Part shown: positions 40,501-43,500 of the stretch, one piece after another | Position numbering within the stretch: the first letter of the stretch is position 1 | Layout of the letters: each line of letters opens with the position of its first letter | Assembly (NCBI GenBank): GCA_046290465.1 | Contig: JBKAGP010000001.1 | Coordinates: 1,408,001-1,472,000 of the forward strand | DNA from: Planctomycetota bacterium | GTDB lineage: Bacteria; Planctomycetota; UBA1135; UBA2386 | Direction: 5' to 3' | DNA length: 64,000 bases | Program-made: the position numbers

Positions 40501-43500
40501 CATCCGAACATCCAGGTCCTGCACGCCGAACGTTGCACCGGCGTCACCGTCTACAAGGTCCGACGAAAGCAGTGAGCACGTCCAGCAACCAACCGACCGG
40601 GCGCCAGCAGCGCGGCAACGGCTCCTCCGAGACGGTTCCCGAGATCAGCGTCGTGATCGCCTGCTACATGGAGGAGGGCCACCTGGTCGACTCGATCGAG
40701 CAGCTGACCGCGACGCTCGAAGAGATCGGCAAGCCCTACGAACTGATCTTTCTCGAGGACCAGAGCCGAGACCGCACCGCCGAGATCATCCGCGAGCTGT
40801 GCGACGGCCACCCGCATCGCCGCGCCGTCTACCACCAGCAGAACGTCGGCCGCGGCGGCACGGTGACGGAGGGGTTCCTGCTCGCCAGGGGCCGCATCGT
40901 CGGCTTCCTCGACATCGACCTCGAGGTGCACTGCCGCTTCCTGCCGGCGGTGCTGCAGGCGATCGAGCAAGGCGCCGACGGCGCCACCGCCTACCGCCAC
41001 TACGCGGTCGGCTGGCGGCCGACCGCGATCGTGCGCCACATCCTCAGCCAGGGCTATCGCTGGCTGTTCCGCGCGATCTTCGACGTGCCGTTCAAGGACC
41101 CCGAGACCGGCTTCAAGTTCTTCGTGCGCGAACGCATCACCGAGGTCGCGCGCCAGACCAAGGACCAGGGCTGGTTCTGGGACTCGGAGATCATGATCCT
41201 CGCGCACCAGGCCGGCCTGAAGATCACCGAGGTCCCGACGCGCTTCGAACGCCGCGCCGACAAGGCCTCGACGGTGCGCATCTTCCGCGACGTCTGGGCC
41301 TACCTGGTCGCCATCCGCAAGTTCCGCCGCCGCCAGCGCGCCGAGAAGCGGGCGCTGGCGCAGGCTCGTTCCTGAACGCCGCGCGGGGCTCAGTTTTCGT
41401 GGTGCGGGCTGTCGAGGCGCGGGCCTTCGATGCCGGGCGTCAGGATCTCCTCGACGTCGAGCACCGCGCAGTGGCAGCCGACGTCGAGCAGCCTCGCAAG
41501 CGACGGGCTGGTGCGCTGTTCGTCGCCGGAGATCCACTCCTTGACGTAGGTGCCGTGCTGGCAGACGACGCGCAGCTCGAGGGTCTGCTCGTCGCGGACG
41601 TCGAGTGCGAGCACGCGCAGGCGGCGCTCGCGCTCGAGGTCGGCACGGCGATGCGCGACGCGCTGCGGTGTGCGCTGCACGATGCCGCCAGCGAACGCAC
41701 GCACCGCGGCCAACCGTTCGTCGCTCGGCATCGACTGGATCGCGACATCGGCGCGGTAGACCTTGTCGAAGTGCGTCTCCTTCCAGTAGACGACGCGCTT
41801 GCGCTCGACGCGCTCGAACGGGGCCAGCTCGATCGCGCCCTCGGCGCGCTGTTCGATGTCGCGGCGCAGCTCTTCGAGGTCGAGGTTGGGGTTGCGCGCG
41901 CCGACCACCTCGAACACGAACGGTCGGCCCTGGCCGAGCATCAGCACGTCGATGTCCTCGCGGCCAGCACCGTGGAACTTGCCGAGTTTGGCCTGCATCT
42001 GCGGCACCATGCGGCGGCCGATCAGCTCCTGGACCGAATCCTTGGTCAGCTTGCCGAAGCCCTCGCAATGCTGGCAGCCGCGGCGGCGCCGGCGGTCGCC
42101 CTTGCACTTGGGGCAGTAGAAGATCGTCTGCGGCAGCCCCCGCCTGAGCTTGCGGTAGCGGCTCTCGAGGTAGAGGTTGCTGCGCGGACGCGGCTTGTCA
42201 TCCGGGACGGACTGGGACATTCCGCAGAAGCAGACCCGACGCGGGCGCGCCGGGCAAGCTCACGCTGCGCCGGCCTGCCTATCGCATCGCCGGGGTGCCG
42301 CCGCTGCGCTCCTGCTTGCGCAGCGCGGAGTTCTTGCGGTCGGTGCGCCGCTCGAGGAAGCGGCCCAGCAGGCCGAAGAACTCCTTCACCGCGATCGGCG
42401 TCTGCACGAACGAGTGGATGTCGTACTTCGACTTGTCGACCGCCATGTCCTTGACGTTGCGCGGCGCCGTCAGCACGAACAGCTCGGTGGTCTTGTCGAA
42501 CGAGCGCAGGTGCTGGAGCACCTTGACGGTGTCCTTCTCGCGCGGGTCGACGCCGAGGAACACGCAGTCGAAGCGCTTGCTGCGCGCCTGGCTGACGCCG
42601 GCATGGCCTTGGCCCACCGTGACGTGGAACTCCTCGAACTGCTGGAGGCCGACCTTCACCTGGTCGCGGATCAACGGGTCCTTCTCGACGAGCAGCACTT
42701 CCATGGCTCGGGTATCGGCAGTTCGCGGCGACCTTTGGAGCGGTGCTGCCCAGATCGCGTTGGCATCGTGACTTGACGGTCGACCCGCGTTGGGCTGTCG
42801 TGCCGGGGTGAACTACCTCGCCGGCGTCGACGAAGCAGGCCTCGGCCCGATCCTCGGTCCGCTGGTGGTCGGCGGCGTCACGATGGCCGGCCCCGAGGGC
42901 ACCGCGCCTTGGCGGCTGCTGCAGCGTCACGTCAGCAAGCTCAAGCACGTCAAGGGCAAGGTCCGCGTCGCCGACAGCAAGAAGGTCAACTCGGGTCCGC
43001 ACGGGTTTCGGCGGCTCGAGGAGACCGCGCTGGTGTTCTGGACCGCGCTGCACGGCGAGCCGCCGGTGTCGCTGGCCGACTGGCTGCTGACCCTCGGCCA
43101 CGACCTCGAACCGCTGCGTCGCTGCCCGTGGTACGAGGGCCTGTCGCTGCAGCTGCCGCGCGTCGCCGACCGCGACTGGCTGTCGCTGACCGGCGAACTG
43201 GTCGCCCGCGCGCTGCGCAAGGGGGACACCGAACTGCTCGACATCGCCGTTCGCGCGGTCGACGTCGAGGAGTGGAACGTGCTGATCGCCGACACCGACA
43301 ACAAGAGCAAGGCCCACTTCCACGCCTACAGCGAGGTGCTCGGCGACCTGGTCGGCCGGCTGCTGCCGCGCATCGGTGCCGACGACGCCTGCCAACTGGT
43401 CGCCGACCGTTGTGGCGGCCGCATGCACTACCGCAACGACCTGGCGCGGCTGTTCCCGGCGGCCGACGTGCGCATCGTCGACGAGCGACCGAGCCGTTCG

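Follow-up and report, generated by a model that had tools for sequence, protein, structure and literature searches.

In bacteria, TruB is the enzyme that usually modifies the elbow of all tRNAs. Passages of three reviews (2021, 2023 and 2025) present TruB as the way in which bacteria make Psi55 and hold that Bacteria have no Pus10 (PMC7912444, PMC9957541, PMC12710931), as an earlier note on this DNA had said of the review literature. Sections of PMC3753934 and PMC9957541 describe a 17-mer T stem-loop as a sufficient substrate of Pus10 from M. jannaschii (MjPus10), and report that Psi55 activity survives deletions in the forefinger and mutation of the N-terminal zinc site. The C106A/C109A mutant indicates that this zinc site contributes to Psi54 formation in vitro (PMC3753934, same sections). 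The parts of PMC3753934 and PMC12710931 that deal with RNA binding report contacts of archaeal Pus10 with tRNA outside the T arm (PMC3753934) and implicate its THUMP-containing domain in binding RNA (PMC12710931, PMC3753934). Given such contacts, an enzyme without the N-terminal domain might be weak or retargeted; given the 17-mer substrate and the mutants that retain Psi55 activity, a truncated Pus10 enzyme is plausible. Proteins of the kind analysed here are already labelled Pus10 by the automatic annotation of NCBI and IMG. No paper describing a bacterial Pus10 that replaces TruB was found in a literature search (supplementary files aside).

The window is the whole stretch of DNA that was analysed, 64,000 nt of contig JBKAGP010000001.1 (positions 1,408,001-1,472,000, forward strand; assembly GCA_046290465.1; Planctomycetota; UBA1135; UBA2386). 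Feature coordinates are positions within this window. The genome is one contig of 6.59 Mb and is 94% complete. A single-copy Pus10 gene without THUMP, g01109 (41390..42220, minus strand; 276-aa ORF, ATG start), is the sole Pus10 match in a search of the whole genome. Local GC around the gene is 0.68-0.69 (genome, 0.70). The protein matches Pfam Pus10_C over profile positions 1-231 of 232 (residues 17-259; E 9.3e-56; 189.4 bits, cut-off 27) and NCBIfam TIGR01213 (Pus10) over positions 160-401 of 402 only (262.6 bits, cut-off 200). The catalytic domain, residues 15-259 (41444..42178, minus strand), is delimited by the TIGR01213 match; residues 14-262 have a high-confidence fold in the AF2 model (pLDDT 93.9, pTM 0.88). 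The best solved relative by sequence is human PUS10 (2v9k; E 6.5e-23; query 56-259, chain 313-520), and the same structure is the top Foldseek match of the model (TM 0.79, rmsd 1.7 A, 252 columns, 28% identity). The description of g01109 in the earlier note as a 276-aa Pus10 catalytic-domain protein, with 2v9k as the only solved relative, agrees with both profiles and with the superposed model. The gene encodes the entire Pus10 catalytic domain, with no further domain. The features that mark it as Pus10 are the full catalytic domain, GREDxD with the core residues, and the forefinger and thumb loops. It is not of the TruB/Cbf5 family: there is no detectable similarity to TruB_N, and the resemblance to Cbf5 is weak and local (NF003280, 23 bits, cut-off 242; 2apo, E 0.0032).

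The forefinger zinc knuckle, C36-x2-C39...C49-x2-C52 (42065..42115, minus strand), was aligned through a Methanocaldococcus locus to C227, C230, C235 and C238 of MjPus10. Of 151 homologues, full-length archaeal ones included, 146-148 share these four cysteines. This CxxC...CxxC pattern had been taken for an N-terminal zinc knuckle; it sits within Pus10_C and is the forefinger of Pus10, not an N-terminal remnant. According to the segment definitions in PMC3753934, ffl1 of MjPus10 (C227-R231) corresponds in the alignment to C36-K40 and ffl2 (C238-V249) to C52-V63, the latter extending 3' of the knuckle feature to 42032. The knuckle tip carries a lineage-specific insert, D42-R46 (DRRRR, four of five residues Arg; 42083..42097, minus strand), found in pairwise and multiple alignments. 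The loop between the two CxxC pairs has 9-10 residues in 34 of 54 class loci and 4 in the archaeal and Bipolaricaulota loci displayed. The insert was considered as a marker of Psi54 formation and rejected, because MjPus10, although dual-specific, has a short loop of four residues.

The catalytic motif H83-G-A-G-R87-E-D89-I-D91 (41948..41974, minus strand) corresponds to H269, R273, the catalytic D275 and D277 of MjPus10; 149-150 of 151 homologues retain its R, E and D. Y155 (41756..41758, minus strand) maps to the active-site Y339 and is conserved in 150 of 151. The thumb loop, T184-R197 (41630..41671, minus strand), includes H190-R191, the equivalent of the H376-R377 'hook' by conservation and alignment mapping. 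The roles of these motif and loop residues in MjPus10 are those given in the corresponding parts of PMC3753934. Overall, R87, D89, D91, Y155, V226, K227 and L254 match R273, D275, D277, Y339, I412, K413 and L440, and 146-150 of 151 homologues share these core residues, with the exception of V226, which lies outside the highly conserved set. The mutagenesis work on MjPus10 in these parts of PMC3753934 names 16 residues (C227/230/235/238, R231, V249, H269, R273, D275, D277, Y339, H376, R377, I412, K413, L440). All 16 are kept in g01109, 14 as identical residues and two as conservative replacements (R231 by K40, I412 by V226).

The N-terminal accessory domain of Pus10 (four-Cys zinc site, THUMP-related fold) is absent from g01109. 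The open frame around the gene spans only 289 aa and therefore leaves no room for it. A profile of the domain, built from 70 full-length Pus10 homologues, was run on the loci and on the six-frame genome: it matches 54/54 archaeal loci and 0/54 class loci, and the best match in the six frames of the whole genome is at E 0.58. The genome's only Pfam THUMP match lies in an RlmK/L-like methyltransferase, 1.3 Mb from g01109. A split gene, with the N-terminal/THUMP part encoded separately, was rejected, none being found in the genome search. Other architectures exist. In both Bipolaricaulota loci examined the N-terminal domain is complete (profile 8-171 and 11-167); 6 of 9 Pus10 loci from other planctomycete orders retain the THUMP-like second half alone (profile ~64-171), as do some Iainarchaeota proteins. 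Acquisition of the gene already without THUMP, as proposed before, is doubtful: these six loci keep half of the domain and the AU test does not reject a single origin of all planctomycete Pus10 copies (p 0.58), which makes loss in steps no less likely. The zinc-ribbon/THUMP domain was probably lost in steps. The three states form a natural deletion series (full domain in Archaea and Bipolaricaulota; THUMP-like half in other Planctomycetota and some Iainarchaeota; none in the class) that bears on the role of the accessory domain, including whether it sets Psi54 versus Psi55 specificity.

Two neighbours of g01109 recur in the class and are taken as genomic context only. A stand-alone receiver-domain protein (141 aa; 42279..42704, minus strand; Pfam Response_reg, E 3.5e-08) is encoded 58 bp upstream, and a homologue adjoins Pus10 in 17 of 54 class loci. 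An RNase HII-like gene (327 aa; 42790..43773, plus strand; partial match to Pfam RNase_HII, E 5.5e-10) is divergent from g01109; in 40 of 54 class loci a homologue is found no more than 1.5 kb from Pus10. A GT2 gene also adjoins g01109, and another GT2 gene adjoins TruB at one planctomycete locus. Shared context was rejected as a coincidence, since the two GT2 proteins show no relationship (E 2.4).

The genome has no TruB, as the earlier note had claimed of this one-contig genome and of its order. No TruB_N match is above cut-off (best 15 bits, E 0.1, an acidic coiled-coil protein), TIGR00431 (TruB) reaches 11.9 bits, below cut-off, and the same search detected TruB in 14/14 control genomes. 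Neither TruB nor Cbf5 was found in this genome or in 121 genomes of the order. TruB_N is found in 0/121 order genomes (0/61 of high quality) and Pus10_C in 119/121 (61/61 of high quality); in the class, which as sampled consists of this one order, Pus10_C is found in 200/201 genomes. The two genes exclude each other more widely. Among 191 high-quality Planctomycetota, 100 have TruB, 30 have Pus10, none has both and 61 have neither; independent distribution would give 15.7 genomes with both (shared ancestry ignored). Both genes occur in two genomes of family f51 (G161 and G187; 86% complete, 3-4% contamination). Outside the class, Pus10_C is matched over its full length in 33 of 285 sampled Planctomycetota, from 14 families, and 31 of these 33 genomes are without TruB. 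Neither enzyme is found in 106 of 301 sampled Planctomycetota, and five such genomes have no TruB_N match even at E 10. Loss of TruB alone therefore demands no replacement, a caveat raised before that holds. Psi55 may be dispensable in these bacteria, or the product of an enzyme yet to be found. A synteny 'scar' of a deleted truB was also sought and dropped. At the two TruB loci examined in TruB-positive Planctomycetota, TruB (231 and 241 aa, without PUA domain) is not in an rbfA-truB-rpsO operon and has TatC, QueA, CbiM and GT2 as neighbours; there is thus no conserved site where truB could be 'missing'.

Bipolaricaulota are an independent repeat of the pattern: TruB_N is above cut-off in 0/61 genomes and Pus10_C is present in 60/61. 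With these genomes and the 33 Planctomycetota from outside the class, the class is not the 'first bacterial clade' with Pus10, as had been suggested. In trees, class Pus10 is a single clade (support 99) whose inner branches track genome families, and Bipolaricaulota Pus10 forms a separate clade; the gene is most likely old in the class and vertically inherited. The class adjoins two Iainarchaeota loci weakly (support 71) in the FastTree tree, a placement absent from the mixture-model tree. We infer an archaeal ultimate source of the gene, and with it the direction of transfer. At least two bacterial lineages would have exchanged TruB for Pus10. This would be a clear instance of non-orthologous gene displacement, affecting a tRNA modification that is nearly universal, and one missed in the literature despite the automatic Pus10 labels.

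The favoured and fairly probable reading is that g01109 is an active Pus10-family tRNA Psi55 synthase, reduced to its catalytic domain, in place of TruB; activity, target site and equivalence with TruB are predicted from gene and genome comparisons. The protein would directly hold the tRNA T stem-loop between its thumb loop and the zinc-knuckle forefinger. U55 would be flipped out and isomerised to Psi55 through Asp89, and g01109 would perform the job of TruB in a class of Planctomycetota that lacks it. Displacement of TruB by Pus10, the central claim of the earlier note, is favoured by the intact catalytic domain, the absence of TruB, the exclusion (0/191) and the repeat in Bipolaricaulota, all of it comparative support. 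The T-loop begins with UU in 53 of 58 predicted tRNA genes and with UUC in 51. As in Thermococcales, a methyltransferase would probably act on U54, namely a RumA-type paralogue in this genome and TrmFO in family f9. In the class, TrmFO is found in 36/121 genomes, RumA-type methyltransferases in 75/121 and both in 1/121. This near-complementary distribution suggests that U54 is methylated in the class, and for this reason Psi54 is considered less likely than Psi55 only. The enzyme probably makes Psi55 only; of the proposed Psi55, perhaps Psi54/55, synthase, the Psi55 part keeps its comparative support and the Psi54 part loses ground. The system is readily testable, E. coli truB/trmA complementation having already been applied to archaeal Pus10.

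Next in order, and unlikely, is that g01109 makes both Psi54 and Psi55, like the enzyme of most Archaea, which would give an archaeal-style T-loop devoid of ribothymidine. All the Psi54 determinants of the MjPus10 catalytic domain are present (ffl1, ffl2, H269 as H83, R273, Y339, H376/R377 hook); g01109 is in this respect like MjPus10 and unlike Pyrococcus Pus10, whose forefinger is shortened by deletions and in which N/S replace H/R. TrmFO (63 bits, cut-off 428) and an equivalog-level TrmA (at most 73 bits, cut-off 334) are missing from the genome, and the forefinger has an extra, mostly-arginine insert. However, the genome encodes three RumA-type m5U methyltransferase paralogues, at about 2336421-2338211, 4374810-4376849 and 6056481-6057962 in genome coordinates, and the complementarity of RumA-type enzymes and TrmFO is what methylation of U54 by one of the paralogues would produce. 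The N-terminal zinc site that aids Psi54 formation in vitro (C106A/C109A, in the cited sections of PMC3753934) belongs to the domain that g01109 lacks, and the Psi54 N1-methylase TrmY was not found in the genome. It is equally doubtful that a bare Pus10 domain, its Arg-rich forefinger insert replacing the lost THUMP, makes Psi54 and Psi55 in all tRNAs. If the dual reading were true, a whole bacterial class would be without ribothymidine-54 and have an archaeal-style tRNA elbow, and the accessory domain of Pus10 would be dispensable for full dual activity.

Ranked just behind, and improbable, is another target (rRNA, tmRNA or another UUNNANN stem-loop), or a mere loss of TruB, Psi55 being absent or made by the RluA/TruD family. 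A third of the phylum lives with neither enzyme; the other Psi synthases of the genome, mostly without assigned specificity, are eight RluA-family proteins, one RsuA/RluB-type, one TruA and two TruD, so that RluA-family paralogues are many. Loss of a substrate-positioning domain could free the enzyme for new RNAs, and RluA, TruB and Pus10 all use seven-base UUNNANN loops (PMC3753934, part on substrates). Mutual exclusion of TruB and Pus10, independently in two phyla, is nevertheless hard to explain with unrelated jobs, the residues lining the T-loop site are invariant, and the passages on Pus10 in PMC7912444, PMC9957541 and PMC12710931 mention no Pus10 with a main target beyond the T-loop. A catalytically dead RNA binder or chaperone, or a decaying relic gene, is very improbable: the accessory domain is gone and human nuclear PUS10 has catalysis-independent roles (PMC9957541, in part), but the catalytic Asp, Arg, Tyr, Lys and Leu are intact, the AF2 model is of high confidence and the frame is intact in 119/121 order and 200/201 class genomes.

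As a putative Psi55 synthase, g01109 shares with bacterial TruB the proposed function and target U55 and the fold of the Psi synthase superfamily (Foldseek matches to TruB/Cbf5, E 1e-5 to 1e-4); TruB differs by the lack of a forefinger loop and by its active-site motif HxGxLD (PMC3753934, section on this comparison). The C-terminal synthase domain of human PUS10 (2v9k) superposes on the g01109 model. The human enzyme has in addition a large accessory domain at its N-terminus (Met1-His285; PMC7749629, in part), coexists with TRUB1 and TRUB2, and makes mainly Psi54 in selected tRNAs (passages of PMC7912444 and PMC9957541). The predicted division of labour is that of Thermococcales, with a RumA-type enzyme (TrmFO in family f9) acting on U54 and Pus10 on U55 (PMC3753934, PMC7912444, relevant parts). 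Pyrococcus Pus10 is self-restricted by forefinger deletions and by N/S in the thumb loop, whereas g01109 keeps both elements and lacks instead the whole N-terminal domain. Bipolaricaulota Pus10 is likewise bacterial and found in genomes without TruB, and differs by its complete N-terminal domain (2 loci); the Pus10 proteins of other Planctomycetota, from genomes mostly without TruB, differ by the THUMP-like half in 6/9 loci. Compared with archaeal Pus10 (TIGR01213, COG1258; M. jannaschii, P. furiosus), g01109 is without the N-terminal zinc-ribbon/THUMP-like domain (~160-200 aa), has the DRRRR insert and is found in a bacterial host. It has the same full catalytic domain, 38-46% identical to archaeal loci, with GREDxD, the forefinger zinc knuckle, the thumb-loop HR hook and the active-site Tyr, Lys and Leu.

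The gene g01109 (window 41390-42220, minus strand) is an ORF of 276 aa with an ATG start. Its stop-to-stop frame holds 289 aa only, and 58 bp separate the stop codon of the upstream gene from the ATG. Residues 17-259 of the encoded protein align to Pfam Pus10_C over its whole length (E 9.3e-56; profile 1-231 of 232). The protein also matches NCBIfam TIGR01213, "tRNA pseudouridine(54/55) synthase Pus10" (262.6 bits, cut-off 200), but at profile positions 160-401 of 402 only. Human PUS10 (2v9k, E 6.5e-23) is the sole solved relative by sequence; Cbf5 comes next, with a local match that is weak. 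The AlphaFold2 model (29-row input alignment; pLDDT 93.9, pTM 0.88) is ordered over residues 14-262. Its top structural match is also 2v9k (E 4.4e-23, TM 0.79 on the query, rmsd 1.7 A, 252 columns); TruA, PUS3, TruB and Cbf5 rank far behind. The profile matches and the fold thus bear out the Pus10 catalytic domain recognized here in the earlier note. GC near the gene (0.68-0.69) is close to the genome value (0.70), so g01109 is no recent import. An RNase HII-like gene (window 42790-43773, plus strand; partial, weak Pfam match) lies at most 1.5 kb from Pus10 in 40 of 54 class loci; a stand-alone receiver-domain gene (window 42279-42704, minus strand) sits between the two in 17 of the 54.

The genome (one contig, 6.59 Mb, 94% complete) was searched with profiles in six frames. 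TruB_N gave no match over the cut-off; the best one (15 bits, E 0.1) lies inside a 542-aa acidic coiled-coil protein. TIGR00431 gave none in the six frames of the whole genome (top score 11.9 bits). Each profile was detected in 14/14 control genomes, including four archaea, via Cbf5. In the order (UBA2386), TruB_N was found in 0/121 sampled genomes, 0/61 high-quality genomes and 0/75 genera, and Pus10_C in 119/121, 61/61 and 75/75, respectively; the two genomes lacking Pus10_C are 66% and 80% complete. The absence of TruB claimed at the outset therefore holds. Pus10_C was also found in 200/201 genomes of a class-level sample (UBA1135), which includes families of this one order only, so that order and class coincide as sampled.

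The same profiles were run on 301 Planctomycetota, 191 of high quality. TruB_N matched 148 of them and Pus10_C 54 (E <=0.001); the latter count includes five weak matches (G129, G175, G183, G199, G349; E 9e-4 to 4e-8, profile positions 120-203 only), which were then set aside. All five genomes have TruB_N matches, which the weak match overlaps in G183 and G349; counting them would give seven genomes with both genes instead of two. The remaining matches give Pus10 only in 47 genomes, TruB only in 146, both in 2 and neither in 106 (high-quality set: 30, 100, 0 and 61). In the high-quality set, the zero with both compares with 15.7 expected under independence (hypergeometric P 1e-11, shared ancestry uncorrected). 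The two genomes with both (G161 and G187, family f51; medium quality, 86% complete, 3-4% contamination) could be in transition, could divide the work between the two enzymes as humans do, or could be contaminated bins. All that the Pus10 of G161 (L062) has left of the N-terminal domain is the THUMP-like half. Divergent TruB-like genes occur in some Planctomycetota (G183:C168:856-1212; G349:C164:5177-5533; also G314, G387, G401); their matches to TruB_N are weak or split (E 1e-12 to 1e-20), and they cross-match the Pus10_C profile at its core (120-203). Two planctomycete TruB that were examined (L064:6137-6832 and L066:6139-6864, both minus strand; 231 and 241 aa) consist of TruB_N and a TruB_C_2 stub, have no PUA domain and are encoded outside any rbfA-truB-rpsO operon. 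Judged by these two, truB of Planctomycetota holds no fixed place in an operon.

The 49 genomes with Pus10 comprise 16 of the class and 33 of 14 other families. Bipolaricaulota, another phylum, show TruB_N over the cut-off in 0/61 genomes and Pus10_C in 60/61 (completeness not given), an independent replicate of the exclusion. g01109 is therefore not unique among bacteria, and its class is not, as had been proposed, the first bacterial clade with Pus10. What speaks most strongly for Pus10 and TruB doing the same job is that they exclude each other in two bacterial lineages of separate derivation. On this comparative evidence, g01109 is rather likely to be the enzyme that makes Psi55 in a bacterial class lacking TruB. 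That part of the earlier interpretation stands as the most likely reading; acquisition in truncated form and the Psi54 activity that it held possible are both unlikely.

Against this, the large group of Planctomycetota with neither gene argues most strongly that the job may stay undone or be done by something else. Five of its high-quality members (G124, G125, G130, G131, G133) gave no TruB_N match even at E 10. In this group, Psi55 is either dispensable or made by a third enzyme. The other pseudouridine synthases of the genome studied here are eight of the RluA subfamily, one of RsuA/RluB type, one TruA and two TruD; among them, only TruA (TIGR00071) and one TruD (TIGR00094) pass an equivalog cut-off. 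One TruD paralogue immediately follows an RluA-family gene of the same strand, with overlapping open frames; the pair (C1:1552910-1555254, minus strand) looks like a two-synthase operon.

The residues of g01109 were compared with those named for Pus10 of Methanocaldococcus jannaschii (MjPus10) in PMC3753934. These are the catalytic core (D275, R273, D277, Y339, I412, K413, L440), H269 (found in dual-activity archaeal Pus10, substituted in Thermococcales), the thumb "hook" (H376/R377) and the forefinger segments ffl1 (C227-R231) and ffl2 (C238-V249). MjPus10 numbering was counted from the catalytic Asp on a Methanocaldococcus locus (L144), a valid ruler since it has the exact residue types at all 16 named positions. 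The aligned residues of g01109 are C36, C39, K40, C49, C52, V63, H83, R87, D89, D91, Y155, H190, R191, V226, K227 and L254: 14 identical to the ruler and two conservative. In an alignment of g01109 with 150 cluster representatives, R87, E88 and D89 are kept in 149-150 of 151 rows and the four Cys in 146-148, full-length forms included. Because these Cys align to the MjPus10 forefinger and are shared with full-length forms, the knuckle, previously taken for an N-terminal zinc knuckle, belongs to the catalytic domain.

Between its two CxxC pairs, g01109 has a loop of 9 residues (KGDRRRRRG), of which window 42083-42097 (minus strand) encodes the inserted DRRRR. Among the class loci (L005-L034, L068-L090 and L112), most show such an expansion with Arg/Lys; in those archaeal and Bipolaricaulota loci that were printed, the loop has 4 residues. 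Loop length differs between families of the class: 4 residues in 8/54 class loci, 5 in 1, 6 in 11, 9 in 30 and 10 in 4. Among class loci of known TrmFO status, the short loop is confined to TrmFO-positive genomes (seven loci: 4, 4, 4, 4, 4, 5 and 6 residues; 23 loci of TrmFO-negative genomes: 6-10). Speculatively, the basic insert may compensate for the lost N-terminal domain.

That domain is truly absent from g01109 and from the genome. A profile of it (70 full-length representatives, 173 positions), run on six-frame translations, gave no match in this genome (best E 0.58) and in 0/54 class loci (three locus pairs being identical sequences fetched twice). Many class loci have <30 open codons upstream of the Pus10 domain. 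The sole Pfam THUMP match of the genome is an RlmK/L-like methyltransferase distant from g01109. The profile matches 54/54 archaeal loci (one cut by a contig end) and, at full length, both Bipolaricaulota loci (L096, L126). Two of three Iainarchaeota loci (L102, L123; Candidatus Iainarchaeum) match at about positions 80-170 only; with the THUMP-like second half alone, they indicate that reduced Pus10 forms exist in Archaea too. In other planctomycete orders, 6/9 loci match at about positions 64-171 only. In the alignments, the THUMP-like alpha/beta part is retained in such half forms, whereas the zinc ribbon is without its first CxxC.

Descent was analysed with FastTree (120 rows) and an IQ-TREE mixture-model "quick" tree (61 rows, picked after the first tree was seen so that every family was represented). 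Pus10 of the class forms one clade with support 99 in both trees, and its inner branches track genome families, indicating vertical inheritance. The two Bipolaricaulota rows form their own clade among Methanosarcinales-like sequences; nine rows of other planctomycete orders are long branches. Constraining all 29 planctomycete rows together, a taxonomic group named after the trees were seen, improved the log-likelihood by 2.7 units over the free search (AU p 0.58, not rejected). Planctomycetota may thus have acquired the gene once, long ago, and lost the N-terminal domain in steps afterwards. Given the half forms in other orders, g01109 was probably not acquired already truncated, contrary to the earlier proposal of a transfer without THUMP.

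Whether a bare catalytic domain can work may be judged from known enzymes. For both of its activities, MjPus10 requires no more than a 17-mer T stem-loop as substrate (PMC3753934, PMC9957541), and the CCA end is dispensable for human PUS10 (PMC9957541). The overall activity of mutant enzymes depends on tRNA nucleotides outside the T arm (PMC3753934), and RNA binding has been linked to the domain that contains THUMP (PMC12710931, which cites Kamalampeta 2013). An ordinary substrate is present, since T-loops mostly start with UU or UUC: among 58 tRNA genes called by ARAGORN, some probably false, UU starts the loop in 53 and UUC in 51, and A is at the fifth position in 48.

Psi54 is probably not made by g01109, judging from its domain content and from comparative data on U54 methyltransferases. 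Its residues point the other way, being closer to dual-specific MjPus10 than to Psi55-only Pyrococcus Pus10. Deletion of ffl1/ffl2 in MjPus10 abolishes Psi54 activity and leaves >60% of Psi55 activity; the N-terminal zinc site, missing from g01109, adds to Psi54 activity in vitro (PMC3753934). The genome was found to have no TrmFO (sole match 63 bits, cut-off 428), no TrmY and no equivalog-level TrmA. Three RumA-type m5U methyltransferase paralogues are present, one RlmD-like and two RlmC-like (C1:6056481-6057962, 2336421-2338211 and 4374810-4376849); one may be a TrmA analogue, or they may be purely ribosomal. In the order, TrmFO is found in 36/121 genomes (f9, 32/32; f7, 4/11; other families, 0/77) and RumA-type PF05958 in 75/121 (f9, 0/32; f1, 29/32; f10, 30/31). 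G014 alone has both; neither occurs in families f3 (0/3) and f6 (0/1). This complementarity, which rests on few independent contrasts, is as expected if U54 is methylated in most of the class. The enzyme acting on U54 would be TrmFO in f9 and a RumA-type paralogue elsewhere, which would leave U55 to Pus10, as in the division of labour of Thermococcales (PMC7912444, PMC3753934).

The 120 closest clusters of g01109 (67-100% identical, 267-306 aa) are named, where named, "tRNA pseudouridine synthase 10" by JGI and Pus10 or hypothetical by NCBI. No description of Pus10 in Planctomycetota or Bipolaricaulota, or of its horizontal transfer to bacteria, was found in the literature, and titles and abstracts yielded nothing relevant on TruB in Planctomycetes. 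Three reviews (2021, 2023, 2025) give Pus10 as absent from Bacteria (PMC7912444, PMC9957541, PMC12710931). With g01109, a known enzyme family gains a new variant, one with a truncated domain set, in a domain of life where it was not expected.
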